Below are positions 9,926-62,200 of a stretch of 64,000 bases of DNA, piece by piece. Position numbers and translations under genes: made by a program. Numbering within the stretch: the first letter of the stretch is position 1; the number at the start of each line of letters is the position of its first letter. Below the pieces are notes generated by a model. The model was not told where the DNA came from, searched no databases, and saw only the letters and a list, made by a program, of their open reading frames with translations. Source of the DNA: Isurus oxyrinchus (taxonomy: Eukaryota); assembly GCA_026770705.1 (NCBI GenBank), contig JANJGN010000014.1, forward strand, positions 24,862,001 through 24,926,000, given 5' to 3'.

Positions 9926-10280
9926 TACCTGGATAGAGTGGACATAGGGAAGATGTTTCTATTAGTAGGAGAGACTAGGACCTGAGGGCACAGCCTCAGA
10001 GTAAAGGGAAGACCTTTTAGAACTGAGATGAGGAGAAACTTCTTTAGCCAGAGAGTGGTGAATCTGTGGAATTCATTGCCACAGAAGACTGTGGAGGCCA
10101 GGTCACTGAGTGTATTTAAGACCGAGATAGATAGGTTCTTGATTGGTAAGGGGATCAAAAGTTACGGGGAGAAGGCGGGAGAATGGGGCTGAGAAACTTA
10201 TCAGCCATGATTGAATGGCGGAGCAGACTCAATGGGCCAAATGGCCTAATTTCTGCTCCTATGTCTTATGGTCTTATGGA
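9926..10280 (+). mobile_element. CR1 3' end fragment
   Basis: TEMRRNFFSQRVVNLWNSLP-coding DNA and a (tcttatg) tail; same family as 14728-15100. Confidence 0.85.
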
Positions 10281-22379: not shown

Positions 22380-25300
22380 CATAGAAACATAGAAACAAGG
22401 AGCAGGAGTAGGCCATTCGGTCCTGCTCCACCATTCATTATGATCATGGCTGATCATCCAACTCAATAGCCTGCTCCCGCTTTCTCCCCATACCCTTTGA
22501 TCCCTTTTGCCCCAAGAGCTATATCTAACTCCTTCTTGAAAACATACAATGTTTTGGTCTCAACTACTTTCTATGGTAACAAATTCCACAGGCTCACCAC
22601 TCTCTGGGTGAAGAAATTTCTCCTCATCTCAGTCCTAAATGATCTACCCTGTATCCTCAGACTGTGACCCCTGGTTCTGGACTCCTCCACCAGCGGGAAC
22701 ATCCTTCCTGCATCTACCCTGTCTAGACCTGTTACAATTGAATAGGTTTTTTTGAGATCCCCCCTCATTCTTCTGAACTCCAGCGAGTATAATCCTAATC
22801 GACTCAATCTCTCCTCATATGTCAGTCCCGCCATCCCAGGAATCAGTTGGGTAAACATTCGCTGCACTCCCTCTATATCAAGTACATCCTTCCTCAGATA
22901 AGGAGACCAAAACTGCACACAATATTTCAGGTGTGGTCTCACCAAGGCCCTGAACAATTGCAGCAAGACATCCCTGTTCCTGTACTCAAATCCTCTGGCT
23001 ATGAAGGCCAACATATCATTTGCCTTCTTTACCGCCTGCTGCACCTGCATGCTTATCTTCAGCAACTGGTGTACAAGGACACCCAGGTCTCGTTGTATAT
23101 TTTCCTCTCTCAATTTATAGCCATTCAGATAATAATCTGCCTTCCTCTTTTTGCTACCAAAATGGATAACCTCACATTTATCCACATTATACTGCATCTG
23201 CCATGCCTTTGCCCACTCACTCAGCTTGTCCAAATCACACTGAAGCATCTCTGCATCCTCCTCACAGCTCACCATCCCACCCAGCTTTGTGTCATCTGCA
23301 AATTTGGAGATATTACATTTAATTCCCTCATCTAAATCATTAATATATATTGTGAATAATTGGGGTCCCAGCACGGATCCCTGTGGTACCCCACTAGTCA
23401 TTGCCTGCCTTTCAGAAAAAGACCTGTTTATTCCTACTTTGTTTCCTGTCTGCCAACCAGGTTTCTATCAATACACTACCCCCAATCCCATGCGCTTTAA
23501 TGTTACACGCCAATCTCTTATGTGGGACTTTGTCGAAAGCCTTCTGAAAGTCCAAATAAACCACATCCACTGGCTCCCCCTCATCAACTCTACTAGTTAC
23601 ATCCTCGAAAAATTCCAGTACATTTGTTAGGCACGATTTGCCTTTCATAAATCCATGCTGACTCTGTCCGATTCTGCCACTGTTTTCCAAGTACTCAGCT
23701 ATTAAATCGTTTATAATGGACTCTAGAATTTTCCCCACTACCGACATCAGGCTGACTGGTCTATAATTCTGTTTTCTCTTTGCCTCCCTTTTTAAATAGT
23801 GGGGTTACATTAGCTACCCTCCAATCTGTAGGAACTGTTACAGTGTCTACAGAATCTCAGAAGGTGACCACCAATGCATCCACTATTTCTAGGGCCACTT
23901 CCTTAAGTACTCTGGGATGTAGATTATCAGGCCCTGGGGATTTATCAGCTTTCAATCCCATCAATTTCCCCAACAGGATTTCCCGACTAATACTGATTTC
24001 TTTCAGTTCCTCCCTCTCACTAAACCCTGTGTTCTCCAACATTTCTGGTATGTTATTAGTGTCCTCCTTTGTGAAGACAGAACCAAAGTATGTATTTAGT
24101 TGGTCAGCCAATTCTTTGTTCCCCATTATAAATTCCCCTGTTTCTGACTGTAAGGGACCTACATTTGTCTTCACCAATCTTTTTCTCTTCACAGAGAAAC
24201 TTTTACAGTCAGTTTTTATGTTCCCTGCAAGCTTACTCTTGTACTCTATTTTCTCCTTCTTAATCAATCCCTTGGTCCTTCTTTGCTGAATTCTAAACTG
24301 CTCCCAATCCTCAGGTCTGTTGTTTTTTCTGGTCAATTTTTATGCCTCTTCCTTACATCTAATACTACCTCTAATTTCCCTTTTAAGTCATGGTTTGGCC
24401 ACCTTTCCTGTTTTACTTTTGCGCCAGACAGGAATAAACAATTGTTGCAGTTCACCCATGCACTCTTTGAATGTTTGCCATTGCTTATCCACCGTCATCC
24501 CTTTAAGTAACATTTCCCAATCCATCATAGCCAACTCACGCCTCATACCATTGTAGTTTCCTTTATTAAGGTTCAGGATCCAAGTCTCAGAATCAACTAC
24601 ATCACTCTCCATCTTGATGAAGAATTCTATCAAATTATGGTTGCTCATCCCCAAGGGGCATCACACAACTAGATTGCCAATTATTCCTTTCTCATTACAC
24701 AATACCCAGACAAGGATGGCCTGTCCTCTCGTTCGTTCCTCAATGTATTAGTCCAGAAAAACATCCCGTATACACTCCAGGAATTCCTCCTCTACGGCAT
24801 TGTTACTAATTTGATTTGCCCAATCTATATGCAGATTAAAGTCACCCATAATAATGGATGTTCCTTTATTACATGCGCCTCTAATTTCCTGTTTAATGCC
24901 ATTCCCAACATCACCATTACAGTTTTGGGGTCTATATACAACCCCCACTAACGTTTTTTGCCCCTTAGTGTTTCTCAGCTCTACCCTTACAGATTCCACA
25001 TTGTCAGAGCTAATATCTTTCCTCACTATTGCATTAATTTCCTCTTTAACCAGCAATGCAACTTCACCGCCATTTCCTTTTTGTCTGTCCTTCCTAAATA
25101 CTGAATACCCCTGGATGTTCAGATCCCATCCCTGGTCACCCTGCAGCCATGTCTCCATAATCCCGGCTATATCATACCCGTTTACATCTATTTGCGTGGT
25201 TAATTCATCCGCTTTATTGCGAATGCTCCTTGCGTTAAGGTACAAAGCCTTAAGGCTTGTCTTTTTAACATTACTTATCCCATTCCCACTATTTTTCACT

Positions 25301-27110
25301 GAGGCCCTGTTTGATTCTTGCCCTTGATTTCTCTGCCTATCACTTTTCTCATTCCACTTTGTCTTTTGTTCTTGTCTTTGATTCCACCTTCCTCTGACTC
25401 CTTGCATAGGTTCCCATCCCCCTGCCATTTTCATTTAAACCCTCCCCAACCACTCCAGCAAATGTTCCCCCAAGGACATCGGTCCTGGTCCTGCCCAAGT
25501 GTAACCCGTCCAGTTTGTACTGGTCCCATCTCCCCCAGAACCAGTCCCAATGCCCCAGGAATCTGAAACCCTCCCCCTCACATCATCTCTTCAGCCACAT
25601 ATTCATCCGATATATCCTGCTATTTCTACTCCGTCTGGTACGTGGCACTGGCAGTAATCCTGAGATCCTTTGAGGTCCTACTTTTCAACTTACTACTAAC
25701 TCCCTATATTCTGCTTTTAGGACCTCATCCCTTTTTTCACTTATGTCGTTTGTACCAATGTGTACCACAACCACTGGCTGTTCCCCCTTCCCCTCCCCCT
25801 TCAGAATGTCCTCTAGCTGCTCTGAGACATCCTTGACCCTAGCACCAGGGAGGCAACATATCATCCTGGAGTCTCGTTTGCAACCACAGAAACGCCTATC
25901 TATTCCCCTTACAATTGAATCCCCTATAACTATTGCATTCCCACACTTACTCCCCCCCTGTGCAGCAGAGCCAACCGTGGTGCAACGAATTTGGCTGTTG
26001 CTGCTTTCTCCTGAGAGGCCATTCCCCCCAATGATATCCAAAGCAGTTTATCTGTTTTGCACTGCCTGCCTAGTCCTCTTGCTTTGCCTGGTGGTCACCC
26101 ATTCCCTTCCTGCCTGTGGACGCTTAGCCTGCGGTGTGATCACCTCAATATACCTGCTATCCACGATACTCTCTGCCTCGCGGATGCTCCAGTGTCCCCA
26201 GCCGCCACTCCAGGTCCAAAACCCAGGCTTCCAGGAGCTGCAGCTAGAGACACTTCCCACACACATGCTGGCCCCGGGCACTGGAAATGTGCCCGGCTTC
26301 CCACATAGAGCAGGAGGAGCACACCATGGCTTTGAGCTCTCCTGCCATGACTTATCCCTTTAAATTAAATTAAATCTTTTGGAAGATACTTAATATCAAT
26401 TACTCTTGGGCGCTTCTTCCCTGCTCCTCATTGTTACAGAATATAGACCCTACAAACGATGAACCACAAAATACGACCTTAAAAACTATAAGCAATAAAA
26501 GTAATAAATGCTTTCCTGGCCATACTCATGATACTCAAAGGATCACCTCATTCCCTCCTCACTCAACTTCCCTCAGTCACCCCTGCTCTCCCAGCTTCTC
26601 TTCAACCCCCGGCTCCTCTCCCGCTTCTCTTCAACTCCCGGCTCCTCTCGCGCTTCTCTTCAACTCCCGGCTCCTCTTCAACTTCCCGGCTCCTCTCCCG
26701 CTTCTCTTCAACTCCCGGCTCCTCTCCCGCTTCTCTTCAACTCCCGGCTCCTCTCCCGCTTCTCTTCAACTCCCGGCTCCTCTCCCGCTTCTCTTCAACT
26801 CCCGGCTCCTCTCCCGCTTCTCTTCAACTCCCGGCTCCTCTCCCGCTTCTCTTCAACTCCCGGCTCCTCTCCCGCTTCTCTTCAACTCCCGGCTCCTCTC
26901 CCGCTTCTCTTCAACTCCCGGCTCCTCTCCCGCTTCTCTTCAACTCCCGGCTCCTCTCCCGCTTCTCTTCAACTCCCGGCTCCTCTCCCGCTTCTCTTCA
27001 ACTCCCGGCTCCTCTCCCGCTTCTCTTCAACTCCCGGCTCCTCTCCCGCTTCTCTTCAACTCCCGGCTCCTCTCCCGCTTCTCTTCAACTCCCGGCTCCT
27101 CTCCCGCTCC
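22380..27110 (-). mobile_element. Near full-length CR1 LINE (5' tandem array, ORF1 Zn-finger + SGNH esterase, ORF2 APE + RT), frameshifted
   Basis: ORF1 MAGELKAMVCSSCSMWE (ATG ~26348), IVIGDSIVR; ORF2 LYLNARSIRNK, MGDFN, SGVPQGSVLGP, KFADDTK; (tttctatg) tail at ~22380. Confidence 0.92.
26586..27108. repeat. 29-bp minisatellite (CTCCCGGCTCCTCTCCCGCTTCTCTTCAA), about 18 units
   Basis: Directly visible near-perfect tandem array. Confidence 0.95.
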
Positions 27111-27769
27111 TTTTCAATTCCTGACTCCTCTAGGTGCTGCTGACTACCTGTCCCAGAGTTCTCCTCTCGCTCTCTCCTATCTTGCTTTCCTCCATTTTCC
27201 TTTCACATCCTAGTCTTAATTAATATAATGTCTCAGTCTGCAATGCTGGAAGAGTTGGGAGAGGGTGAACATTCTTCAATGCCACCTGCCAGCCAGCAAA
27301 TAGCATACTTGAAATAGATGAAGGAACAGTCTCTCTCCAATGTGACTTTCTCCTTGCTGCTTGGTGTCTGTCTACAACAGCACATTCAAAGTTCGGTTGG
27401 GGGGGGGGGGGGGTGGAAACCCTACTGATCAAAGTTTCTTTGTATTGTGCATGGTCCATTCCTTAAAGGTAACATTACCTTTAAATTCTCTGCATGGCCA
27501 TGCTATTTTAAAAGGAGAAAATTGTGCATGGCCTGCACAGTGATTTACAGGTTGCTGCACAGCCATGCAGCTGTGAAGGAATACTGCTGCTGACCAAATG
27601 TTTTATGCCACAAAGCTGGCCAAACATTTAAAACATCTAATTTAATGACATTTTTATAATTTAAAAAAATTACTCCCACACTGGAACTCTCAAGCACTAA
27701 TTAAAAGTTCCCATTAATTTTGGACAACCCGAGTATCTTATTACCTAAAACCCAATACTGAACATTGGA

Positions 27770-31414: not shown

Positions 31415-31598
31415 TGAAATGAAAACAGAAAACTTGGGAAACACTCAAAAGATTTGGCAGCAAAAGACAGTTAATGTTTCAGATCTGTGACCTTTCATCA
31501 GAATTATGATCAAAAGTTCACAGACCTGAAAACATAAATAGTTTTCTCTCTCCACAGATGCTGCCTACTAAGTATTTCCATCATTTTGTTTTTATTGG
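31415..31598. mobile_element. Short palindromic element made of two inverted PLE 3' tails (hammerhead-containing)
   Basis: Imperfect inverted arms centred on AATT at 31502-31505, each homologous to the PLE terminal module. Confidence 0.75.
31469..31505 (-). ncRNA. Minimal hammerhead ribozyme motif, partly decayed
   Basis: AATT-CTGATGA-A-AGGTC-ACA-GATCT-GAAAC-ATT-AACT. Confidence 0.65.
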
Positions 31599-36550: not shown

Positions 36551-38796
36551 TTTGTGACCACCAAGGACACAGGCTGCTTAAATCAGGGATATACAACTTT
36601 GTAGAGCTGGGGACATATAGATATGGAAAATTCTGTGAATGACCCCAATATAACACTCACACAAAGTGAGACCACACAACCCCAACACAGTGTGTCAACA
36701 AACACACAGGAATCAAGCTGAGACTTCCATAGATAAAAGAAAATGAAACCACAAGTGAGAATTAGATCCAATCACACAAAACAGGACACATGCACACAAA
36801 TCGAGGACCTCCTCTGTGCTCTTTTCCCCTCTCTCACAAAAGTGGAAGCTTCAGCTCCTAAGATCCTGTGCCTGAAAGACTACAGAGGATTGCTTGCCAA
36901 TTGGATTTTGATTTTGCTCAGGAAGCAGCCTCTTCCAGTGCTTCAATTTCAGGAACTTCTAACCAGCTGAAATCAGTTGTGAGCAGAGTGTAAAGGCACT
37001 CAAAGGCTCAGTCAGAGAATTGTCATCCTTGTGTTCAATTCCTCCTGGGTCTCTTTCCTTCACTATATCCATAACCTCCTCCAATCCGATAACCCTCTGT
37101 GATCTCTTCCCTTCTGCACCGACTTCCATCGGCGCACTACTAGTGTTTGTGCTTGTGTCCCCAAGTGCTAAAATTCCCTCCCTTAAAGGAGAAAAATGAG
37201 GTGGAGAAGTTAAGATGTTTCTTACAACCTACCTCTTTGACCCAGCTTTGGGCCAAGTCTCCTGATAGCTCCTTATGTGGCTCAGAATTAAATTTTGTTT
37301 TATAGTGTTCCTGTTAAGCCTCTTGGAAGATTTTATGTTATAGGTGCTGTACAAATGCAGGTAAATGAAGGTGGGTTGAGGTAATGTTTTCAGCTCTGTT
37401 TGTTAGTCTGTTTGTTGGTAAACACTGTATATAAAAAAACTAATGGGACAGATTTCAACGAAACACAGTACAAAGCTAGGGTATTGCCCAAGGGAGAACT
37501 GATTAGCCTTTGACGACGTTGAGGATCTGATTCAGATCCTGAAATTTTTTTAAAGGATCCGTTAACATTAGGAGATAGGGAGAACGGAGTGTTTTTTTAA
37601 AAAGGATATTGTTGATTGTCTTAGAATGTTGTGGATTGTCTCAGTTGATGTGGTGGAAATTGTCAACCTTTCAAAATGTAAGCAGAGTTTTCAGAGCAGG
37701 TAGTTAGATGTGGATTGGCCCGAAGCTGCCTCAGTGAGATGGAAGCTCTTAATAAAAGACTTGTTTTTTCAGTTTTGTAGTCACAGAGCATTAAACTGGC
37801 AGGGAACAGCTGCGTAACTGTAATAATGTTGTTAACATAGCCTGACAGAGGTATACGTTCCAAGTGCCCTCTTCACTTGTATCATAACTACAATTTGAAA
37901 CAGGTCTTTTATGGGAGTGACAAGGGGAAATCAGGTCAGGACATGTCATGAAAACAATTTGGGGGAAATCAGTAGAGAGCACGAGTTCAAACCAACTCTA
38001 ACTTTCACTAACAAGCAGGGAATGGCCTTCAGTCTATTAATTAATGGTTAAAATGTTAAAAATCCTGATAATCTTCAAAAACTATACAACTCAGTCCTAC
38101 TTGTACTCATATTTCTTGCTCTCTGATGTTTTTCTGTTTGAATTTTGTAAGCCTGGAGATTTGGAAAGGATTTTCCCAGCTGTTGCCTCATTGATGGATG
38201 AATTCTAAATCAGAGCACCATATGTCAATATTCACAGCTTGAGATAAATTTAATCTAAAAGACCCAATGACCAAAACTTATAGTCCCAAGGAATTCACTC
38301 TATGCTCAATGATAGAGCTTGGACAATCCTTCACAATATAAGGGTCAAGTTTAAAAGAGTGGATGTCGTCATCTAAGTATTTGAAAGAGAAATGAACATG
38401 TTGATATAGCATAAAATAGACAAAGGGCCCAAAGTAAGAGACACACACTTTCCAAGAGGAAAATAGGAGCAACAGCAAGGCTGTCAATATCAGTGTTCAG
38501 ACAAAAAGGAGAATGAATGCTGAGGAGGAGGAGAGGGCACTCCTGAAACCTGTGTCGGTAGTATAAAGGTTTAATAGCTATTATGCTAATATACATCATC
38601 GGTGATGTTAGATCATGTGTCACTGGAGCTGAGAGAGAGAGAGATAGTTCTGGAAGGAGCCTCATGTTTATCTATCCCTTAAATAGTTGTATATAGTTAA
38701 TAAATATTTGATAGTTCCTGGAAGCCTTGTTTCCTGTACTCTATGTTAAACCTGGGACCATTTGTGATGATACTTCAGTGCCAAACTGAGCTGGAG

Positions 38797-40170
38797 CAAA
38801 AGCAAAAAACTGCGGATGCTGGAAATCCAAAACAAAAACAAAAATACCTGGAAAAACTCAGCAGGTCTGGCAGCATCTGCGGAGAAGAACATAGTTAACG
38901 TTTCGAGTCTGAATGACTCTTCAACAGAACTAAGTAAAAATAGAAGAGAGGTGAAACATAAACTGGATTAACGGGGGTGTGACAAGGAGAGCTGGATAGA
39001 GGGCCAGTGAAAAATGTCACAGACAAAAGGACAAAAAGGTGTTGAGGGTGGTGATATTATCTAAGGAATGTGCTAATTAAGGGTAGAAAGCAGGACAAGC
39101 AAGGTACAGATAGCTCTAGTGGGGGTGGGGTGGGGTGAAGGAATCAAAAAAGGCTAAAAAGGTAGAGATAAAACAACGGATGGAAATACATTTAAAAATA
39201 ATGGAAATAGGTGGGATAAGAAAAATATATATAAATTATTGGGAAAAAAAAGGGGGGGGGATCGGAAAGGGGACGGGGATGAAGGAGAGAGTTCATGATC
39301 TAAAATTGTTGAACTCAATATTCAGTCTGGAAGGCTGTAAAGTGACTAGTCGGAAGATGAGGTGCTATTCCTCCAGTTTGCGTTGAGCTTCATTGGAACA
39401 ATGCAGCAGGCCAAGGACAGACATGTGGGCATGAGAGCAGGGTGGAATGTTGAAATGGCAAGCGACAGGGAGGTCTGGGTCATGCTTGAGGACAGACCGA
39501 AGGTGTTCTGCAAAGTGGTCACCCAGTCTGTGTTTGGTCTCTCCAATATAGAGGAAACCTCATTGGGAGCAGCGAATGCAGTAGACTAAATTGAGGGAAG
39601 TGCAAGTGAAATGCTGCTTCACTTGAAAGAAGTGTTCGGGCCCTTGGACGGTGAGGAGAGGGCAAGTAAAGGGGCAGGTGTTGCACCTTCTGCGGTTGCA
39701 TGGGAAGGTGCCATGGGAGGGGGTTGAGGTGTAGAGGGTGATGGAGGAGTGAACCAGGGTATCCCGGAGGAAATGATCCCTGCAGAATGCCGCCAGGGGG
39801 AAGGGAAGATGTGTTTGGTAGTGGCATCATGCTGGAGTTGGCAGAAATGGCAGAGGATGAGCCTTTGAATGCTGAGGCTGGTGGGGTGATAAGTGAGGAC
39901 AAGGAGGACCCTGTCATGGTTCTGGGAGGCAGAGGATTGTGTGAGGGCAGATGCGTGGGAGATGGGCCAGACATGGTTGAGGGCCCCGTCAACCACGGTG
40001 GGTGGAAAACCTCGGTTAAGGAAGAAGGAAGACATATGAGAGGAACTGTTTTTGAAAGTGGCATCATCAGAACAGATGTGACGGAGGCGAAGGAACTGAA
40101 AGAATGGGATGGAGTCCTTACAGGAAGCGGGGTGTGAGAAGCTGTACTCGAGGTAGCTGTGGGAGACGGT
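38797..40170 (-). mobile_element. Penelope-like element, 5'-truncated (RT C-terminus, GIY-YIG, 3' tail)
   Basis: MSSFFLNRGFPPTVVD...VLTYHPTS; same family as 53844-58003. Confidence 0.9.
38893..38931 (-). ncRNA. Minimal hammerhead ribozyme motif
   Basis: AGTT-CTGTTGA-A-GAGTC-ATTCA-GACTC-GAAAC-GTT-AACT. Confidence 0.75.
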
Positions 40171-40478
40171 CGGTTAGCTAGAGCATTGTTGGATGTCAAG
40201 GACGGAAGGGCTGGATAGAGCTCAAGTGATGGGCCTTAGGGAAATCAAGGTTCGTTTTGACGGTTCAGCAGTTATCCAATCTCTGTATGACTTACCAAAC
40301 ATAAAGGAGATCACACTTTCAGCAGCAACACAGAATAATCAATTAGGACAAGTGTGGGAAGCAACAAAGTGACAGGTGTTTCACGTGTTGTAGTTACAAA
40401 ATTTGTCTCAAGAAGAGATGCATGTAAGGAAGATGGTTATAAGCAATTTTAAACACCCAAGCTCTTTTTGACACTTAC

Positions 40479-47758: not shown

Positions 47759-50197
47759 CTGGCAGAAGGGAAAGAAAACACAGTGTCTTTAGGAAGATAC
47801 AGTTTCTGCTCTTGAAACTGGAGTAATGTTTGACATTTTGTAATAAAGAGTTCTAACTTGACAGTACTCGTTGTAGGGGTTCCTCTTTTCCCTCAGAGAC
47901 CCTCCCCACACTCAAGTTCATGATACCAGATTCACAGGTATATGGCTTGAACAGAATGACCAGAAAGACAAGTTTCTTGATAAATCACAATAAATTTAGT
48001 GGATCACCCACAACCCTACAGTACAAAATCCAAAATGTAAAACAACCTATTCCCAGTACCTGACACAAAGTTATCATGACTTGGTTAAAACTTACAAAAC
48101 CACAGGCAAAACGCCATGCCCTGTCCTGAAACCTTAAGAAAAAACCCTCAGACCAATATCACCAAGATATAGCTGAAACAAATTACAAGGTACCAGCAAA
48201 AAACGCCAAGTTTTTGCAAACCTTCACAAAACCCTCGGACCACTATCACTATGATTTGGCTGAAACCTACAATCCCCAAGACAGCTGGTCTGTCCAGTGT
48301 TGACTGTAGGCCTGAATCGAGGTGACCAAACTCGAACCTTCTTCCAACTGCAGCCCAAATACTCAGGCGTGCTCTTTTACAATAACTTAACTCAGACATG
48401 TCACAACATATTTCTGTTGTTCCAATGTTCAGTTAGTTGATTCCAGCAAAGTCCAGACAAATATTATCAGCTCATGCTGGTTGAAACAATACAGGGGTTT
48501 CCATGGAAGATGTATTCAGACGAATATTACCAGTTCACATTGTATGAGCAATTCTCCTGCTGTTTGAGGTGGCACAGTAACAGCACCTGGCTCCAAAGTT
48601 AATGAGGATTTGAATGACCCTATTCCACTACCTGTGGTGGTTGAATGATTCCTTGAGTGTATTGTATTGATGATATATCCTTTATGCCATTGTATTGGGT
48701 AATCAAACTTCGTGATCATGTTAGTCAATGTCCAACGCCTTTTGATGAGTCACTGTGTTTTCACTGAAGTCCGAATTAATCCCTTGCTGCCCAGCCTTGT
48801 ACTGCTGACTGCAGTTTATCTTTTTGAAATTTATCGTTACAATCGTGAGGTCAAAACATGTCCGTGGGTTTGAAATTAAGTTTCATAAATTTCCTCAGTT
48901 ATAGAGGATTTTGATCCTACATCCTAAGTACAGGTCTGTCACTGCACAACACTGGGAAGCAGTGCTAAAAGGTGCAGGTCCTACCACTGTAAACAGACTT
49001 GAGCACCTTATCTAGATGGATTGTAAATTAAAGCATAAAAGAAAGGATGCACTGTATGAGGTGCCGTCTTTTGGATGAACTGTTAAACTGAAGCAAAAGT
49101 ACAAGATCTCATGTTACTAGCCAAGTAGAAGCAGGAAGCTTCTCTGATCAAAATGTATTCCTCAATAAACACCATTAATCACAGGTAACTTAATGCATTA
49201 ATTTGCTGTTTGTAATCACAGTCTACAGATCAGTAATTACACTTCACCTGTTGGGATGTCTTCAAGATGTGAAAAAGTGATAAAAAAGCACAAGATCTCA
49301 CATTTCTTTAAACTCACCCTGCCCCTATCACTGACTAAAAACTGACTGACTAATTTAGTTAGCTGCATGCCTCAAGATATTGCTTTAAATATAAAGCATT
49401 GCACATGCTGTGTATAGATTCAGTCACTTTTCTGCTAAATTTAAAAAAAAAGGGGGTGCTGAGCAATGGGTACACTTCTATCCTGTTCCAACAATATACT
49501 TCATCCCCCAACTAAGAAGTGGGCTCCAAAATTACTCATCTGAAAATTTCTATTTTTCATTGCAGTCACCCTGTGGTCCTCTGAATTGGAAGACAAATTT
49601 AATGTTGACCTAGGGACAATTATGCCGTGGACTAATGCTGACTGGAACTGGATTGAGACAGCCAAACTCCGAAGTGCTTCAAATCAATCATTTTTGGGGC
49701 TAATTCACAGGTAACTAGCCCTGGGACTTAAACGGACAGCCACAGGATTACAAATACACTATTTTGATCTGCTATATTAGTGCACCTGCAAGCACCATGT
49801 ATTTTTAGTCAAACTGGACTGTCAATTGGAAGCTGCAAATGCAAAGCATGTCAATTTGTGCTTTTATCATTTATCATTGGCTCATGTCTCACCCAACTTT
49901 CGCAACTAAATGTACAAGAATGTCATAAGGTTCTTAAGGAACTCAACTCCAATATAACCATTATTCAATTTCCAAAATACCAGAAGTTGCAAAAGTGAGT
50001 TCCAATGATCTGTGGTAACTCCTCTTGGCACTGGTAAGTTTGGATAAGAGTACCACCTCACCTGCATTTCCCTGTCACTAATGTGAACAACTTTCCTAAT
50101 GTGAACATCACTGGCAAGGCCAGTATTTATTGCCCATCCCCAATTGCCCTTGAATTGAGTGGCCTGCCAGGTCATTTCAGAGGGCAGTTGAGAATCA

Positions 50198-51282
50198 ACC
50201 AAAGATACTGCAGATGCTGGAACTCTGAAATAAAAGCTGAAAATGCTGGAAAAATTCAGCAGGACCGATGGCATCTGTGGAGAGAGAAACAGAGTTAATG
50301 TTTTGAGTCTGTATGACCCTTCTTCAGAGCTACACCGAAGGTGTTGCGCAAAGTGGTCACCCAGTCATTTGGTCTCCCCAAAGTAGAGGAGACTGCACTG
50401 GGAGCAGCGAATGCAGTAAACTAAATTGAAGGAGGTACAAGTGAAGCGCTGCTTCACCTGAAAGGAGTGTTTGGGCTCTTACACGGTGAGGAAGGAGGAG
50501 GTAGAGGAGCAGGTGTTGCACCTTCTGCGATTCCATGGGAAGGTGTCATGGGAAGGGGATGAGGTATTGGGAGTGATGGAGGAATAGACCAGGATGTCCT
50601 GGAGGTAATGGTCCTTACGGAATGCTACAGGGCAGTGAGAGGAAGATGTGTTTGGTGGTGGCATCATTCTGGAAATGGCAAAGGATGATCCTTTGAACAT
50701 GGAGACAGGTGGGGTCAAAAGTGAGAACAAGGGGGGACCCTTTCATGGTTCTGGGAGAGAGGGGAAGGTGTGAGGACAGAGGCGCGGGAGATGGGTTGGA
50801 CACGGTTGAGGGCCCTGTCAACCACAATGGGTGGGAAACCTCGGTTAAAGAAGGAGGAAGACATGTCAGAAGCGCCGTTTTGGAAAATGGCATCATTGGA
50901 ACAGATGCAACGGAGGCGAAGGAACTGAGAGAATGAGATGGAGCCCTTGAGGAAAGCAAGAAGTGAGGAGCTGTAGTCAAGGTAGTTGTGGGAGTCAGTG
51001 GGCTTGTAATGAATATTAGTGGACAGTCTATCACCAGAAATGGAGACTGAGGTGTCAAGGAAGGGAAGGGACGTGTCGGAGATGGACCATGTGAAGGTGA
51101 GAGAGGGATGGAAATTGGAAGCAAAATTGATAAATTTTTCCAGATCCAGATGAGAGCATGAAGCAGCACTGAAACAGTCGTCGATGTACCAAAAAAGCGT
51201 TGTGGGAGGGGGGCTTGAGTAGGACTGGAACAAGGGATGGTCCACATACCCCATAATGAGACCGGCATAACTGGGACCCAAG
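50198..51282 (-). mobile_element. Older Penelope-like element fragment with internal deletion
   Basis: GPSYAGLIMGYV, WYIDDCF, LPFLD, YKPTDSHNYL; 3' tail at 50198-50331. Confidence 0.88.
50293..50331 (-). ncRNA. Decayed minimal hammerhead motif
   Basis: AGCT-CTGAAGA-A-GGGTC-ATACA-GACTC-AAAAC-ATT-AACT (GAAA changed to AAAA). Confidence 0.55.
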
Positions 51283-51661
51283 GACCGATGTGGGTCTGCA
51301 GTCACATGGAGGCCAGACTAGTAAGGATAGCAGATTTCCCTCCCTAAAAGACATTTCTTTTTTTTTGCGTTCCCTAAAAGACATTAGTGAACCAGATGGG
51401 TTTTAATGATAATCAGTGATAGTTGTCATGATCATCATTAATGAGATTAGCTTCCTATTTCCAGGTTTATTAACTGAATTTAAATTCCACCAGCTGCCAT
51501 GGTGGGATTTGAACCCATGTCCCAGAGCATTAGCCTGGGTCCTTGGATTATTAGTCCAGTCACATTACCACTATGTCACAATCTCCCTGCTCACCATTCT
51601 GCTCAGATGTTAAAGATACATTAAAGGTGTTATAAATAACAATTGGGCATTATTAATTCAC

Positions 51662-52665: not shown

Positions 52666-53940
52666 AAAACCTAATTTCTCCAAATGACAATGAACCAGAA
52701 GGGTAAAGAAGCAGAAAATGATGAAGAGGGTGTCCAGCAAGGAGGACTGGCTTCACACAGTGACTCCAACAGACTGGTTTCATCTGGCTGAGAGATCCTT
52801 CTTCCATGAAAAGGAATCTAACTAGCCTCGCTCACCTCCCAGAAGTGGATTGAGCAACACATGGCTAAGTTACAGTGTACAGGAGAAGGGAAGAACGAAA
52901 AGGAAATATTTTAGATTGTGTTCTTCTTTATAATTTACTTCTCAAATCAATAAGATGCTTAAACATTGATTATCACTGACTTATTAAGCATACCGAAAAT
53001 GAATAGTACTTAAAACATACGCCTAAAGAATAATACTTACAAATGAACCTTACTGGTTTAGTTAAGGGACTTTCGGTTCACAGCTCCAAGCTTAGTATTA
53101 CAGATTGTTGAGACCTTATTGGTCCTAGGTATATGTACAAACTCCCACTTTTTAAAGTGGGAGTTCTACATGACAATCCACGATTAACTGCATAATGTAG
53201 AAACATAAATTTGACTTTAATTTCGTACCAGTCCACCCCTTGCTTCCATGAAAATTCCAATTAAAAAGCATGATGTATACCCAGATGTTTCTTCTGCAGT
53301 ACCAATTGCTTTTCTGTACTTGCTACCAATTAATTAAAGTTCTCTGAAATATGAATCACTATGCACTTGCATGTCTTTAAATTGGAATTACAAAGTGACA
53401 AAAACAGCCTTAAGGCAGTTTAGTGGTCACTGCAGCTAAATTGACCTGCTTAACAGGCAAAAGCTAATGGTTACTATTACCACAACAAAAGAGATTTCAA
53501 TAACAGTACAATATTAGCAGACCTCAGAAACTGGATTTGTACACAATTTTCAATAACAAGACATTGCTAGAATAAAGATAAGAGCAATGGTTGCAAGCTC
53601 ACTTGATCACTTGCTTCCTGCAGTGTGCAGGGCAGTTGTCCCTATGATTAAATATCCGATTTTCTTAATAAAACTGTGATAATCCTTTCCTTACAAAAGG
53701 AAAGGAAACAGGAACTGTGAAACAATCAAGGCTTATGTTGCTCTCAATGTCAGTGAAGGAGAAGGGTGCTATGAAAGTCACATTCATTCCAGATAGTTCA
53801 CCCCAGAACACAAAATTAAACCAAATAATTAGAATTCAAGTATAAAAACCAAGAAAACTGCGGATGCTGGAAATCCAAAACAAAAACAGAATTACCTGGA
53901 AAAACTCAGCAGGTCTGGCAGCATCGGCGGAGAAGAAAAG

Positions 53941-53979
53941 AGTTGACGTTTCGAGTCCTCATGACCCTTCAACAGAACT
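53941..53979 (-). ncRNA. Minimal hammerhead ribozyme motif (type I), best-preserved copy
   Basis: AGTT-CTGTTGA-A-GGGTC-ATGAG-GACTC-GAAAC-GTC-AACT; predicted cut between 53945 and 53944. Confidence 0.82.
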
Positions 53980-54372
53980 TGATTTCGAGTCCAAGAAAGA
54001 GTTGAAATATAAGCTGGTTTAAGGTGGGTGTGTGGGGGGGCGGAGAGAGAGTGAGAGACAGAGGTGCTTGTGTAGACAAACAAGCAGTGATAGAAGCAGA
54101 TCATCAAAAGATGTCAGCGACAATGGTACAAAAGAACACATAGGTGTTAAAGTTAAAGTTGGTGATATTATCTAAACGAATGTGCTAATTAAGAATGGAT
54201 GGTAGGGCACTCAAGGTACAGCTCTAGTGGGGGTGGGGGGAACATAAAAGATTTTAAAATATTTAAAAATAATGGAAATAGGTGGGAAAAGAAAAATCTA
54301 TAAAATTTATAGGGAAAAAAAAGGGAAAAAAAAGGGGGAAACAGAAAGGGGGTGGGGATGGGGGAGGGAGCT

Positions 54373-55508
54373 CACGACCTAAAGTTATTGAATTCAATAT
54401 TCAGACCGGAAGGCTGTAAGGTGCCTAGTCGGAAGATGAGGTGTTATTCCTCCAGTTTGCGTTGGGCTTCACTGGAACAATGCAGTAAGCCAAGGACAGA
54501 CATGTGGGCAAGAGAGCAGGGTGGAGTGTTAAAATGGCAAGCGACAGGGAGGTTTGGGTCATTCTTGCGGACAGACCGCAGGTGTTCTGCAAAGCGGTCG
54601 CCCAGTTTACGTTTGGTCTCTCCAATGTAGAGGAGACCACATTGGGAGCAACGAATGCAGTAGACTAAGTTGGGGGAAATGCAAGTGAAATGCTGCTTCA
54701 CTTGAAAGGAGTGTTTGAGCCCTTGGACGGTGAGGAGAGAGGAAGTGAAGGGGCAGGTGTTACATCTTTTGCATGGGCATGGGGTGGTGCCATAGGAGGG
54801 GGTTGAGGAGTAGGGGGTGATGGAGGAGTGGACCAGGGTGTCCCGGAGGGAGCGATCCCTACGGAATGCCGATAAGGGGGGTGAAGGGAAGATGTGTTTG
54901 GTGGTGGCATCATGCTGGAGTTGGCGGAAATGGCGGAGGATGATCCTTTGAATGCGGAGGCTGGTGGGGTGATAAGTGAGGACAAGGGGGACCCTATCAT
55001 GTTTCTGGGAGGGAGGAGAAGGCGTGAGGGCGGATGCGCGGGAGATGGGCCGGACACGGTTGAGGGCCCTGTCAACGACCGTGGGTGGAAAACCTCGGTT
55101 AAGGAAGAAGGAGGACATGTCAGAGGAACCGTTTTTGAAGGTAGCATCATCGGAACAGATGCGACGAAGGCGAAGGAACTGGGAGAATGGGATGGAGTCC
55201 TTACAGGAAGCGGGGTGTGAGGAGCTGTAGTCGAGGTAGCTGTGAGGGTCGGTGGGTTTGTAATGGATATTGGTGGACAGTCTATCACCAGAGATTGAGA
55301 CAGAGTGGTCAAGGAAGGGAAGGGAAGTGTCAGAGATGGACCACGTGAAAATGATGGAGGGGTGGAGATTGGAAGCAAAATTAATAAATTTTTCCAAGTC
55401 CCGACGAGAGCATGAAGCGGCACCGAAGTAATCATCGATGTACCGGAGAAAAAGTTGTGGAAGGGGGCCGGGGTAGGACTGCAACAAGGAATGTTCCACA
55501 TACCCCAA
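54373..55508 (-). pseudogene. PLE RT C-terminus + GIY-YIG ORF (inverted arm), premature stop at 54444
   Basis: RYIDD...PCPCKRCNTC...VYCIRCSQCGLLYIGETKRKLGDRFAEH...RKLEE*. Confidence 0.9.
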
Positions 55509-57531
55509 AAATACCCCAGTTCAACGGATCCTTTTACCCATCTCCAATATTCTCCCTCCACCTGGACCCCTCCCTCTGGATTCTTACCTTCTCTTGATCT
55601 TTTCATTGAGAACTGTCGGCGCGACATTAGTCGTCTCAATTTCTCTGCTCCTCTCACCCATTCTAACCTGTCTCTCTCTGAACTTACTGCACTCCATTCT
55701 CTCAGGTCCAACCCTGACATTGTCATCAAACCCGCTGACAAGGGTGGTGCTGTTGTTGTCTGGCGCACTGACCTCTACCTCGCGGAGGCTGAGCGTCAAC
55801 TCGCAGACACTTCCTCCTACCTCTCCCTGGACCATGACCCCACCACTGAACATCAAGCCATTGTTTCCAGGACTGTCACTGACCTCATCTCCTCTGGGGA
55901 TCTCCCTCCCACAGCTTCCAACCTGATAGTCGCCCAACCTCGGACGGCCCGCTTCTATCTCCTACCCAAAATCCACAAACAGAACTGCCCCGGTAGACCG
56001 ATCGTCTCAGCTTGCTCCTGCCCCACAGAACTCATTTCTCGTTATCTTGACTCCCTTCTCTCTCCCCTTGTCCAGTCCCTTCCCACCTACATCCGTGATT
56101 CCTCTGACACCTTACGTCACATCAACAATTTCCAGTTCCCTGGCTCCAACCGCTTCCTCTTCACCATGGACGTCCAATCCCTCTACACCTCCATCCCCCA
56201 CCAGGATGGTCTGAGGGCCCTTAGCTTCTTCCTCGAACAGAGGCCCGAACAATCCCCATCCACCACTACTCTCCTCCGTCTGGCTGAACTTGTTCTCACG
56301 TTGAACAATTTCTCCTTCAACTCCTCTCACTTTCTCCAAATAAAAGGTGTGGCTATGGGTACCCGCATGGGCCCCAGCTATGCCTGTCTCTTTATGGGGT
56401 ATGTGGAACATTCCTTGTTGCAGTCCTACCCCGGCCCCCTTCCACAACTTTTTCTCCGGTACATCGATGATTACTTCGGTGCCGCTTCATGCTCTCGTCG
56501 GGACTTGGAAAAATTTATTAATTTTGCTTCCAATCTCCACCCCTCCATCATTTTCACGTGGTCCATCTCTGACACTTCCCTTCCCTTCCTTGACCTCTCT
56601 GTCTCAATCTCTGGTGATAGACTGTCCACCAATATCCATTACAAACCCACCGACTCCCACAGCTACCTCGACTACAGCTCCTCACACCCCGCTTCCTGTA
56701 AGGACTCCATCCCATTCTCCCAGTTCCTTCGCCTTCGTCGCATCTGTTCCGATGATGCTACCTTCAAAAACGGTTCCTCTGACATGTCCTCCTTCTTCCT
56801 TAACCGAGGTTTTCCACCCACGGTCGTTGACAGGGCCCTCAACCGTGTCCGGCCCATCTCCCGCGCATCCGCCCTCACGCCTTCTCCTCCCTCCCAGAAA
56901 CATGATAGGGTCCCCCTTGTCCTCACTTATCACCCCACCAGCCTCCGCATTCAAAGGATCATCCTCCGCCATTTCCGCCAACTCCAGCATGATGCCACCA
57001 CCAAACACATCTTCCCTTCACCCCCCCTTATCGGCATTCCGTAGGGATCGCTCCCTCCGGGACACCCTGGTCCACTCCTCCATCACCCCCTACTCCTCAA
57101 CCCCCTCCTATGGCACCACCCCATGCCCACGCAAAAGATGTAACACCTGCCCCTTCACTTCCTCTCTCCTCACCGTCCAAGGGCCCAAACACTCCTTTCA
57201 AGTGAAGCAGCATTTCACTTGCATTTCCCCCAACTTAGTCTACTGCATTCGTTGCTCCCAATGTGGTCTCCTCTAGATTGGAGAGACCAAACGTAAACTG
57301 GGCGACCGCTTTGCAGAACACCTGCGGTCTGTCCGCAAGAATGACCCAAACCTCCCTGTCACTTGCCATTTTAACACTCCACCCTGCTCTCTTGCCCACA
57401 TGTCTGTCCTTGGCTTACTGCATTGTTCCAGTGAAGCCCAACGCAAACTGGAGGAACACCACCTCATCTTCCGACTAGGCACCTTACAGCCTTCCGGTCT
57501 GAATATTGAATTCAATAACTTTAGGTCGTGA
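55509..57531 (+). pseudogene. PLE reverse transcriptase + GIY-YIG ORF, 5'-truncated, frameshift ~57025, stop 57274-57276
   Basis: IKPADKGGAVVV, YLLPKIHK, GRPIVS, MDVQSLYTSIP, GVAMGTRMGP, RYIDD, LPFLD; VYCIRC..CGLL*IGET, HF, GLN. Confidence 0.93.
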
Positions 57532-57930
57532 GCTCCCTCCCCCATCCCCACCCCCTTTCTGTTTCCCCCTTTTTTTTTTTCCCCTTTTTTTTCCCTATAA
57601 ATTTTATAGATTTTTCTTTTCCCACCTATTTCCATTATTTTTAAATATTTTAAAATCTTTTATGCTCCCCCCACCCCCACTAGAGCTGTACCTTGAGTGC
57701 CCTACCATCCATTCTTAATTAGCACATTCGTTTAGATAATATCACCAACTTTAACTTTAACACCTATGTGTTCTTTTGTACCATTGTCGCTGACATCTTT
57801 TGATGATCTGCTTCTATCACTGCTTGTTTGTCTACACAAGCACCTCTGTCTCTCACTCTCTCTCCGCCCCCCCCCCACACACACACCTTAAACCAGCTTA
57901 TATTTCAACTCTTTCTTGGACTCGAAATCA

Positions 57931-57969
57931 AGTTCTGTCGAAGGGTCATGAGGACTCGAAACGTCAACT
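57931..57969 (+). ncRNA. Minimal hammerhead ribozyme motif
   Basis: AGTT-CTGTCGA-A-GGGTC-ATGAG-GACTC-GAAAC-GTC-AACT. Confidence 0.8.
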
Positions 57970-58159
57970 CTTTTCTTCTCCGCCGATGCTGCCAGACCTG
58001 CTGAGAATTCAAGTATGGTTGGACAAAATCCATAGCCAGTTGGGATCAGATTTGTAAAAATGGAAACCAAAGCTGCCCAAATGAATACAGCTTGCATTAT
58101 AAATGAACTTCAGAATGATCACCCTCATGGATTAAGTAAATGGAGAATTTGAAACCAAC

Positions 58160-58299
58160 CTTATCAGTGCCAGGTATTGTCTCAAAAGAGCTAAGTTGGT
58201 ATCTTGTCTCCCTCATGTAACGCTCTTTCTCTGGACACATATCCAAACAGGTCCCCACCACAGCTTTAGCCTTCTCCAACTCAGTTCTTTTCACTCGTG
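58160..58299 (-). CDS. MCM3AP: MCM3AP exon ([47 protein letters not shown])
   Basis: SAC3/GANP N-terminal motif GTCxDMCPExER; TAG acceptor, GTTGGT donor. Confidence 0.96.
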
Positions 58300-59339
58300 C
58301 TATGGGCACAGAAGAATCAGATAAAAATAATATTTTTTGCTCTGCACATATGAATCATGCTCAATGCCAGCACTAGGAAATGACACTGTCCTTAAATGTT
58401 AATCACCATCTCAGGTTTTCTTTCAACTTAAATTCAATGAACACATTTTAAATCCTTCGTTCACCCCCTCAAATCCTTTATTCATCTTCGCATGTTGCAA
58501 CTCTTAATTAATTCCATCATGATGTTACTTTATTCTATTTGCATAAAAAGCTAGCAAAACATCTCAAAAACGTCTCTTCAGTCTGGTAGTGACATGGAGA
58601 AGTTATTTGAAAAGTTCTTCACTTAATTTCCCATAAACTAGGCTTGAACAACAATGAATCAATTAAAAGGCCATCCTTAAACTACAACTTCGGTCATTGG
58701 TATTTGTTGCAGTAGTTTCCAAATGCTTCACTGCCAGCCAGGGCAATGGGTGAAGGAAAACTGCACTCCTCCCTCCAGCTACAACCAACCCATTCCCATT
58801 CAGCCTGAGGCCCCTGTACAATCGCTTCTCGACCCAAGAAGCATTCCTTCCTTCACACCCAGAAAAGGCATGGTCATTTCCGCAGCTATTAGGGTTCCAA
58901 GCCTAACAACAGATGAAGGTAAGAAAAAAAGAGAGTGCATGCGACAGAGAGAGAGAAAATGCATGCCAAATATACAGAAAAACATAAGTATCAGAGGCAG
59001 AAGGAATAAGTGAATTGTAGAAGGGTGAGAAATGGTAAAAAAGCAAAAAGGAGACATCATGAAAGAGGGAATGAGGCAGAATGCAAAAAATGGAGACAAA
59101 TTGAGCTACCTAGACAATGAAAAAAAAGTGTACAAGAACAGAAAACAGAGGAATAGAGAGAAGAGGAAAAAGAAATTAAAGAATGGAAAAAGCACAAAGA
59201 CAACAAATTAATTCACTGTCAACGGGCAGAAAATCTAGCTCTTGGACAAATCATTTTTATAATTCTACAGGGAATGCAATTGGAGATCAATTAGTACCTT
59301 AAAAATAATGAACTTCGCCAAGAAATGATGCATCATTAC

Positions 59340-59545
59340 CTTGCCTCATTAGCTTGTCCCGCTGGTCAAGTACCCTGTATTTCTCCTCGGGAGTAATGGC
59401 AACTATGCCAATTAAATGATTGAGGGAAGAAGGTAGTGCCCCTGCACGTTCAGAAATTGACACCTGATCTTCCATACCCTGTGGATCCTGGGATTCATTC
59501 TCAGATTGCAGAGTCTTTGAAGAAGATGGTTTCTTAACTGGCGAC
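59340..59545 (-). CDS. MCM3AP: MCM3AP exon (SPVKKPSS...EKYRVLDQRDKLMRQ)
   Basis: CAG acceptor, G|GTAATG donor; GANP motif EKYRxLDQRD. Confidence 0.93.
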
Positions 59546-59864
59546 CTGCAGAGCAAATCTAATGAACATCTGATTCTGTTTAAAACCCCAGTTCTTATCT
59601 TATTTCTCTCCTCACTTAGCCCCTCACATTCAATTTGTTCATAACAGAAAGGGATGGATCATGCAGCCTCACAGTGCATCACTTATGAATGAACCCAACT
59701 ACACAGTGTCACAGGATGCACAAACATTCAGGACTGACAAACTCACCCAGTGTCAGCCAGGATCCACACCTGTAACAGATTGACAAACTCACCCAATAAC
59801 AGAACAAAAACAGAATTACCTGGAAAAACTCAGCAGGCCTGGCAGCATCGGCGGAGAAGAAAAG

Positions 59865-59903
59865 AGTTGACGTTTCGAGTCCTCATGACCCTTCAACAGA
59901 ACT
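59865..59903 (-). ncRNA. Minimal hammerhead ribozyme motif
   Basis: Identical to 53941-53979. Confidence 0.82.
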
Positions 59904-60869
59904 GGGTGAATCCAAGGAGAGGGGTGAAATATAAGCTGGTTTAAGGAGTGGGGCGGGGGTGGGAGGGGGGGGGGGGGGGGGGAGGTGTGGAAAGAAGTGG
60001 AGGGGGGTGGTGTGGTTGTAGGGACAAGCAAGCAGTGATAGGAGCAGATCATCAAAAGATGTCACAGACAAAAGAACACAGAGGTGTTAAAGTTGATGAT
60101 ATTATCTAAACGAATGTGCTAATTAAGAATGGATGGTATGGCACTCAAGGTACAGCTCTAGTGGGGGTGGGGGTCATAAAAGATTTAAAAATAATGGAAA
60201 TAGGTGGGAAGAGAAAAATCTATATAATTTATTGGAAAAAAAGCAAAAGGAAGGGGGAAGAAACAGAAAGGGGGTGGGGATGAGGGAAGGAGTTCAAGAT
60301 CTAAAGTTGTTGAATTCAATATTCAGTCCGGAAGGCTGTAAAGTGCCTAGTCGGAAGATGAGGTGCTGTTCCTCCAGTTTGCGCTGGGCTTCACTCGAAC
60401 AATGCAGCAAGCCAACGACAGACATGTGGGCAAGAGAGCAGGGTGGAGTGTTAAAATGGCAAGCGACAGGGAGGTTTGGGTCATTCTTGCGGACAGACCG
60501 CAGGTGTTCTGCAAAGCTGTCGCCCAGTTTACGTTTGGTCTCTTTTGTTTTTTCCAATAATTTATATAGATTTTTCTTTTCCCACCTATTTCCATTATTT
60601 TTAAATCTTTTATGCCCCCCACCCCCACTAGAGCTATACCTTGAGTGCCATACCATCCATTCTTAATTAGCATATTCGTTTAGATAATATCACCAACTTC
60701 AACACCTCTGTGTTCTTTTGTCTGTGACATCTTTTGATTATCTGCTCCTATCACTGCTTGCTTGTCCCTACAACCACACCACCCCCCTCCACTTCTCTCC
60801 CCCCACCCAACCGCTCCCTCTCCCAACCTTAAACCAGCTTATATTTCACCCCTCTCCTTGGATTCACCC

Positions 60870-60908
60870 AGTTCTGTTGAAGGGTCATGAGGACTCAAAA
60901 CGTCAACT
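60870..60908 (+). ncRNA. Minimal hammerhead motif with G12A change (likely inactive)
   Basis: AGTT-CTGTTGA-A-GGGTC-ATGAG-GACTC-AAAAC-GTC-AACT. Confidence 0.65.
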
Positions 60909-61281
60909 CTTTTCTTCTCCGCCGATGCTGCCAGACCTGCTGAGTTTTTCCAGGTAATTCTGTTTTTGTTTTGATTTCCAGCATCCGCAGTTTTTTGTTT
61001 TTATCACCCAATAAGAGAGTCCATCCCATTGAAGCTAATCTTAAATAGAGTCAATGTATTTTGTGAATTGAAATTAAAACTTCATGAGCACAGTAAGCAC
61101 AGGGTATGATAACAATAAGGCAAAGGAAAACTTGTTTATTGTTTCTTGTACCCAGCAATACTGAAAAATAATTCTCACTGGCCTTTATCACAGAGGTTAA
61201 TAGAAAAACAAAATACTACAGATGTTGGAAATCTGAACTAAATACAGAAAACATAGGCAGCATCTGTGGAGAGAGAAATTG

Positions 61282-61318
61282 AGTTAACATTTCAGTTCTG
61301 GGACCTTTCATCAGAACT
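61282..61318 (-). ncRNA. Minimal hammerhead motif in a solo PLE tail (~61203-61320)
   Basis: AGTT-CTGATGA-A-AGGTC-CCA-GAACT-GAAAT-GTT-AACT. Confidence 0.62.
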
Positions 61319-61359
61319 GGGACAAGATTAATGCTGGCAATTTCTTTGCACAGGATCAG

Positions 61360-62200
61360 TACAGAAGATTCTCTTACTGTTCCGATGGCGATTAAGCAAA
61401 GCAGTTCTGGGACCCATAATTGGGTCCTTGAACGTTGTGTCATCTCCCAAATTTGTTCTAATCTTCCTCACAATCCCTTGTTTCAAACTTTTCATCAGAT
61501 TTCTGCCAAGCGACAGTGCAAAATGACTAACTCAAAGTCAGAATTTGTATCCCATGTGAGTGATCTTGGCAAACTATTCCAGCTACTCCTCTCTGCAACT
61601 TTTGACAGGGTCCAGGACACCATATTCCTCCTAGGTTGTCTAGCCAAGTGGGATTGCCTTGGTTCCATATTAAATGTGGTAGGTATCCTATATCTAATAC
61701 TGTCCACCAGAGTTTCTCGCATGACGCCAAATTGAATGCCTTCTCAAAATCAATAAAGCACATGTACATTGGCTGCTTGTGTTCTTAGGCTTTGTGCATT
61801 ATGATTCTAAAATTGGTGACTTGATTCCTCTTCTGCATCAAAATCCAGCTTACTCATCAGCAATCTCAATCTGTCTTTTTCCAGATCTGTTCCAGGACAA
61901 TCCTGAGCAATTTTACTATCGTGGGAGATATGAGTAATTCTTCTACAATTTGTGCACCATTTCAGGTCACTTTTCTTCAGAAGAGGGATAAAGGTAGAAT
62001 CCGCCCAGTCCAGTCACCTGCCTCCTGCACAGCCACACATATTCAGACATCCTGTCCACTACGAATTCTTCTCCCATCTTAAGTAATTCTGCCGATATAT
62101 CGTCTGGTATTTAGCCTTATGGCTGGCCTTCTGAAGAATAGCTCACTGTACCTCAGATCAAAGTGGAGGCAATTGTATGCATCCACTATCTCCCTCAGCT
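61360..62200 (-). mobile_element. Degenerate RTE-clade LINE RT fragment
   Basis: YMCFIDFEKAF; decayed 'PLLKKSDLKWCTNCRRI' and QAGF-like segments. Confidence 0.6.

Follow-up and report, generated by a model that had tools for sequence, protein, structure and literature searches.

The nine hammerhead-like motifs in a 64,000-nucleotide stretch of Isurus oxyrinchus DNA (contig JANJGN010000014.1, positions 24,862,001 to 24,926,000 of the forward strand; the window) almost certainly descend from the minimal hammerhead ribozyme (min-HHR) of Penelope-like elements (PLEs). The account that we find more likely than not, by a modest margin, is that an ancestral dimer-type ribozyme lost strength in a lineage whose transposition continued, a lineage with U at core position 6. 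Hammerheads at PLE ends were already known; the inherited U6 is the new part. The evidence comes from six insertions in this one 64-kb window, resolved by self-comparison and target-site duplications. Insertions are labeled E31 to E61 and motif copies by their first position, and core positions are named by standard hammerhead numbering, as used in PMC3088659.

All nine stretches were found by direct sequence check at the coordinates and strands in Table 1, and their stem II and loop sequences agree with those quoted in an earlier note on this DNA. Counted there as eight copies plus one decayed copy, they correspond to six insertions, three of which are inverted pairs. The pattern proposed in that note, AGTT-CTG(W)NGA-A-stemII-GAAAC-GTH-AACT, fits 38893, 53941, 57931 and 59865, while the other four of the eight main copies deviate from it; its W masks the U at position 6. 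The sequence GAAA (G12 to A15.1) was present in six of the eight main copies, with A at G12, a catalytic position of the hammerhead core, in 60870 and 50293; the G12A of 60870 is absent from the sister arm of E59, which keeps G12. U-H and an extra A before stem II were present in all eight, and stem III is loopless. The triplet after which cleavage was expected, GUC, was present in four copies and replaced by GUU in two and AUU in two, and the palindrome ACGT, to which stem III was said to be reduced, was present in five, with ACAT in 50293 and 31469 and ATGT in 61282. Stem II had been described as pairing despite sequence change; 61282 is mismatched (GAACT, not GATCT), and the step from GGGTC/GACTC to GAGTC/GACTC is one-sided. 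The loops, described as varying freely, include all those quoted, and four of the eight copies share one identical loop. One stem mismatch was found in each of 50293, 31469 and 61282. CpG observed/expected was 0.29 across the window, and the changes at G12 and in the palindrome may all be expected products of CpG decay; ACAU could alternatively be a family state, and one coelacanth representative has C/A at these palindrome positions (PMC4209133).

Table 1. Hammerhead motifs, insertions and associated features in the window
Feature	Position	Strand	Remarks
min-HHR homologue	53941..53979	-	U6, G12 and ACGU intact, GUC; putative cut 53945/53944; left arm of E53
min-HHR homologue	57931..57969	+	U6 core CUGUCGA, GUC; right arm of E53
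min-HHR homologue	59865..59903	-	U6 core, GUC; left arm of E59
min-HHR homologue	60870..60908	+	U6 core plus G12A; right arm of E59
min-HHR homologue	38893..38931	-	U6, GUU, stem II A-U replacing G.U; insertion E38
A6-type copy	50293..50331	-	G12A, ACAU, stem I mismatch; abuts PLE endonuclease fragment (E50)
A6-type copy	61282..61318	-	AUGU, stem II mismatch; short hammerhead-plus-tail unit without nearby ORF (E61)
A6-type copy	31469..31505	-	ACAU, stem I mismatch; half of head-to-head inversion, centre AATT 31502-31505 (E31)
decayed A6-type copy	31502..31540	+	second half of E31
conserved tail	53844..53940	-	pyrimidine tract, ATG, long hairpin; presumed 5′ start of next tandem unit
E53	53844..58003	.	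5′-truncated Neptune-type PLE preceded by inverted truncated copy
target-site duplication of E53, 13 bp	53831..53843	+	partner 58004-58016
PLE ORF	55512..57531	+	RT (PF00078), linker, GIY-YIG region; ~225-240 N-terminal residues missing
inverted 3′ ORF part	54372..55511	-	CX4CxxC linker, GIY-YIG match; one in-frame stop near end
E59	59800..61003	.	inverted pair of short truncated copies; built like E53
target-site duplication of E59, 11 bp	59789-59799 and 61004-61014
E38	38799..40175	-	single truncated copy, thumb and endonuclease region
target-site duplication of E38, 10 bp, 1 mismatch	38789-38798 and 40176-40185
E50	50195..51284	-	more distant ORF fragment, hammerhead, tail; 3′ boundary approximate

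The association of minimal type I hammerheads with PLEs, given as established in the earlier note, has already been published, and the anatomy seen here agrees with it (PMC4209133). Metazoan PLE min-HHRs were described there, including those of fish Xena, Poseidon and Neptune elements, mostly as solitary motifs or opposite-strand pairs (Cervera and de la Pena 2014, PMC4209133), and share with the shark copies a 4-bp stem I, an extra nucleotide after A9, no loop 3, a palindromic 15.2/16.2 (CG) and a position in the pLTR; unlike them, the otherwise intact shark copies all carry U6 and are missed by the descriptor of that study. A diminished stem III and dimer cleavage are shared by the Penelope-associated dimeric hammerheads of Lunse, Weinberg and Breaker (RNA Biol 14:1499), as summarized in PMC6765202.

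The published min-HHR descriptor (cuganga; PMC4209133 Fig. S7) gave 0 matches in the window, whereas it gave 4 once its position 6 was set to U, against a mean of 0.005 and a maximum of 1 in 200 dinucleotide shuffles; the hits are above chance, and because the copies are related they count as one origin. Rfam gave 0 matches at gathering score across the window and, at E up to 10 over 53500-61500, five unrelated weak matches with no hammerhead family among them. A chance resemblance to the hammerhead would sit well with the Rfam result and the empty search with the published descriptor; set against the shuffle mean and the agreement of core, stems, extra nucleotide, palindrome and pLTR position with the published consensus, it is extremely improbable. 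For stems I and II, which in the published class have at least 3 bp and 3-7 bp respectively, 75 of 81 cells were paired, a level reached in 0 of 500 shuffles, and slid controls gave 18-47%. Two-sided change was seen at three pairs (8 of 500 shuffles), the copies being related and two of the pairs resting solely on the decayed 31502; the only pair independent of 31502 is the first of stem II, changed from G-C to A-U in 31469 and 61282. Because the sequences are related, the pairing is consistent with the structure and does not amount to a formal proof of covariation.

A covariance model built from the nine copies found no further copy in the window; of its 14 matches, the best after the training sequences (43-63 bits) scored 16.7 bits. 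An nhmmer scan of the window returned the nine copies and six weak matches, none a convincing tenth; the best of these, 17786-17835 (-), resembles a hammerhead-plus-tail remnant (E 1.4), was missed by the covariance model and was for that reason not counted. An alternative core register starting at UUGA was set aside on inspection, since stem I would be lost.

The location at PLE 3′ ends that the earlier note gave to the motifs is borne out by element context. In a Pfam scan of 23 ORFs, the RT of E53 matched PF00078 (E 4e-8), and the inverted E53 arm matched GIY-YIG PF01541 at E 3e-4 and 21.4 bits, just under the curated cut-off of 22.6. Both copies of the E53 ORF are interrupted, the plus-strand one by a frameshift of one base near 57020-57027 and by a stop at 57274-57276. 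The ORF is collinear with full-length relatives, RT being followed by a C-terminal GIY-YIG; the closest named proteins, from Chiloscyllium, Mobula and Stegostoma, are 65-73% identical, which points with high probability to a cartilaginous fish as host. Among 240 relatives examined, a CX2-5CxxC linker was present in 115 of the 119 having the endonuclease motif. According to PMC8557442 and PMC3846280 this linker marks Neptune (and Nematis) as opposed to Penelope/Poseidon, and by its CX4CxxC linker between RT and endonuclease the element is assigned to the Neptune type.

The arms of E53 show 13 differences in 1607 aligned positions and those of E59 15 in 401, and the inverted arms, one-sided tails and short duplications of both follow the PLE pattern set out in PMC8557442 and PMC3846280. 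PLE coding sequence was found in four of the six insertions; E31 and E61 have no ORF, and E50 is without the endonuclease end and the 3′ UTR. Target-site duplications sought at E31, E50 and E61 yielded 6-8 bp matches, which were not accepted, and these three are older insertions. A head-to-tail tandem unit was not found within the window. The nearest same-strand motifs lie 1.4 and 2.9 kb apart, in different insertions and with one of each pair damaged, and E31, E53 and E59 each carry their two motifs on opposite strands, so that no dimer would form from one insertion at these loci. Three of the six insertions have a 5′ boundary that coincides with the 5′ edge of the hammerhead (31502-31505, 50331-50334 and about 61318-61324), corresponding to the inversion centre in E31, the endonuclease-fragment junction in E50 and the start of homology in E61. 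Such a boundary may be a transcript start, a splice point or an RT stop; that of E61 could alternatively be due to a diverged upstream UTR.

These edges bear on an alternative that we consider improbable, in which the short A6 copies are not truncated PLEs and represent a non-autonomous retrozyme or SINE family of their own. Such a family would account for the missing ORFs of E31 and E61 and for the homology in E31, E50 and E61, whose start coincides with the 5′ edge of the hammerhead or lies no more than a few bases away. Retrozymes, however, are tandem arrays, and 0 of the 14 tandem-repeat rows of the window cover a hammerhead; E50 adjoins PLE coding sequence, and the tails of the A6 copies are 70-83% identical to that of E53. 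Animal non-LTR retrozymes with a type I hammerhead, found in one chondrichthyan genome and proposed to originate from the PLE pLTR, are described in PMC7229834 and bioRxiv 10.64898/2026.07.22.740005 as tandem non-coding units, whereas the shark copies are solitary or inverted and mostly accompanied by PLE coding sequence.

The U6 core, CUGU(U/C)GA, was found in five of the eight main copies, from E38, E53 and E59, including all four that are otherwise intact. A6 was found among the main copies only in 50293, 31469 and 61282 (E50, E31 and E61), each of which is damaged elsewhere. Because A6 is missing from every otherwise intact copy, the motif falls outside the min-HHR class in the strict sense and was classed as a variant. 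Position 6 is A in 56 of 56 representatives in PMC4209133 Fig. S3, although these came largely from a search whose main descriptor fixed A6, and no cartilaginous fish was listed. No U6 hammerhead class was described in the literature searched; the PLE variants of Lunse et al. may include one, and the supplements of bioRxiv 10.64898/2026.07.22.740005 could list shark motifs.

Differences from the E53 ORF at first, second and third codon positions numbered 26/27/44 in E38, 3/0/7 in E59 and 36/40/80 in E50, and the third-position excess, uncorrected for any codon-position bias of CpG decay, was 44/97 for E38 (p 0.009) and 7/10 for E59 (p 0.02). The masters of E38, E53 and E59 thus diverged while under selection for protein, and because the ORFs of the U6 insertions diverged in this way, U6 was inherited through transposition and not produced by decay. 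A6 is taken as the ancestral state because both the family consensus and E50, the more distant insertion, have it; this reading draws on six insertions of one window, and the E50 hammerhead and the adjoining ORF piece may be of different lineages.

Between E38 and E53 the motif differs at 5 of 39 nt, all at tolerated positions (three in the loop, one wobble to Watson-Crick, one at H17). This is as expected from continued selection on the ribozyme and would speak against lost function; the motif identity of 34/39 is not above that of the 3′ UTR (0.84, ungapped columns) and is below that of the tail (0.94). The remaining core positions, both stems and ACGU are retained across E38 and E53, as would be the case if U6 were tolerated and a fully functional, protein-assisted dimer cut tandem transcripts to unit length, after which the units would circularise and RT would pass the junction; this joins the inference of the earlier note, that self-cleavage processes the element RNA, to the circular model of PMC4209133. 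Natural core variants with some activity are described in PMC3088659, and the hammerhead of PAc is reported to cleave only with protein (PMC11167929). We regard this possibility as doubtful, though it deserves the most weight among the alternatives to a weakened ribozyme: it has to be reconciled with the uniform A6 of the published representatives, with the reduced activity reported for position-6 changes in PMC3088659 and PMC9901934, with anole RNA-seq in which, by the account in PMC11167929, no reads end at the cut site, and with a dimer modelled at -10.1 kcal/mol, against -8.3 for each of two locked monomers, which together are the more stable.

Activity was measured on hammerhead scaffolds other than this one, and A6U is not given separately in the relevant passages of PMC3088659 and PMC9901934. 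A natural A6C hammerhead, that of phage Bcep176, had a kobs below 0.1 per min (PMC3088659); it is likewise changed at position 6, but to C and not U, in a bacteriophage and in a non-PLE motif. In a full mutational scan, activity was low for all CUGA-turn mutants except a C-G swap (PMC9901934). In a folding model of the 39-mer, U6 permits a UGUU/AACG helix that buries core and palindrome, with a pair probability of G5 and U6 of 0.6-0.97 in four of the five U6 copies and 0.13 in 57931; when position 6 was barred from pairing, the helix fell to <=0.12. With 20-nt flanks it persisted in two of the five copies, and with 40 and 100 nt it was <=0.19 in all. Because the helix fades with longer flanks, core-locking is treated as a lead only.

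The motif sits in the pseudo-LTR (pLTR) of a Neptune-type PLE. In the account that we favor, the hammerhead of a tandem element would lie ~20 nt upstream of the conserved ATG and tail of the next unit. Active cores would arise when two copies join through their ACGU palindromes and exchange stem I strands, as is established for the family; because stem III is loopless, an active core needs two copies. For min-HHRs in vitro, no monomer activity and low dimer activity are reported in PMC4209133. The copies in the window are passengers of 5′-truncated insertions. The sequence 3′ of the predicted cut was 40, 69, 98, 99 and 101 nt long in the five U6 copies, and the older copies are also tailed. 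Because the U6 copies extend past the cut site, the template RNA was either uncut or re-ligated, and reverse transcription would have begun within the tail, 40-101 nt 3′ of the cut, and run through such a hammerhead. A re-ligated circular template would also explain the read-through, and circular templates were proposed for PLE hammerheads in PMC4209133. In its ancestral A6 form the ribozyme probably worked slowly and with the help of a dimer partner or of protein, and the lineage of E38, E53 and E59 would have fixed A6U and gone on transposing. Because A6U was fixed while transposition continued, the ribozyme of this lineage was most likely weak or nearly inactive, and from this we infer that cleavage was dispensable or marginal for insertion.

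A close parallel is the one reconstituted PLE, PAc, a Poseidon element from Anolis carolinensis (Frangieh et al. 2024, PMC11167929), for which hammerhead mutants are reported to leave in vitro insertion unchanged, uncut RNA to be the main template and RT to start inside the RNA. As in PAc, a tail follows the pLTR hammerhead of the shark elements, the insertions end past the hammerhead, and one end may have a longer tail. PAc is a Poseidon in which the ORF starts inside the hammerhead, whereas the shark elements have a Neptune-type linker and a conserved ATG ~20 nt after stem I.

The tail was compared among copies and is 88/94 identical between E38 and E53. Its role as the start of the next unit is presumed by analogy with PMC11167929 and PMC3846280. 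A pyrimidine tract, CAG and ATG directly follow the hammerhead at 38870-38892, 50270-50292 and 61260-61281 (-) and at 31541-31562 (+), an arrangement that resembles a 3′ splice site plus start codon; in E53 and E59, CCG replaces CAG, and a donor-like CAG/GTAATT lies ~27 nt past the ATG. The frame of the ATG is open to the element end in E38 and closed after 10 codons in E53. The tail ATG was also considered as an ORF start; the best match of nine tail translations against 151 N-termini had an E of 0.055 and lay in another frame, and the candidate was dropped as unsupported.

A 10-bp long-range hairpin in the tail (53860-53930 (-) and equivalents) was 78.5% paired in seven copies, with slid controls at 17-54%. 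Its covariation was not above shuffles (248/500), and the tail consensus by RNAalifold reached only -0.75 kcal/mol. The hairpin may correspond to the stem-loop at which RT begins in PAc. The strong conservation of the tail, the hairpin pairing and the pyrimidine tract, CAG and ATG of four copies would also suit a fold retained, with its conserved tail, as a signal and no longer for catalysis (protein binding, RT start, promoter or splice context). We think this quite unlikely, given the covariation and consensus-energy results, the CCG of E53 and E59, and the report that the full pLTR is dispensable for PAc insertion in vitro (PMC11167929).

The role of PLE hammerheads has been called unclear, and they may simply parasitise PLEs (PMC8557442). 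A direct comparison of A6 with U6 becomes possible where a lineage goes on transposing while it passes on a change at a core position that is otherwise invariant. We tentatively propose, as a possibility well short of even, that a U6 class exists in a recently active shark Neptune lineage, invisible to cuganga screens, in which the core zips onto the palindrome to give either a locked ribozyme, opened only by element protein or a partner RNA, or one catalytically retired in an element that goes on spreading. If so, the A6 and U6 sister lineages, side by side in one genome, would amount to a natural experiment on the reason for hammerheads in PLEs. The empty search with the published descriptor suggests that fixed-core screens undercount these motifs.

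Other repeats were also present in the window. A homogeneous, pyrimidine-rich tandem repeat with a 29-bp unit spans 26586-27131 in ~16-19 copies with up to 98% match. LINE-type RT and AP-endonuclease fragments at 5879-6421, 22574-23464 and 24751-25434 belong to a second repeat family that has many copies between 1 and 63 kb, and an inverted 352-bp pair at 9928-10279 and 14730-15081, 93% identical, is younger than the other copies of that family.
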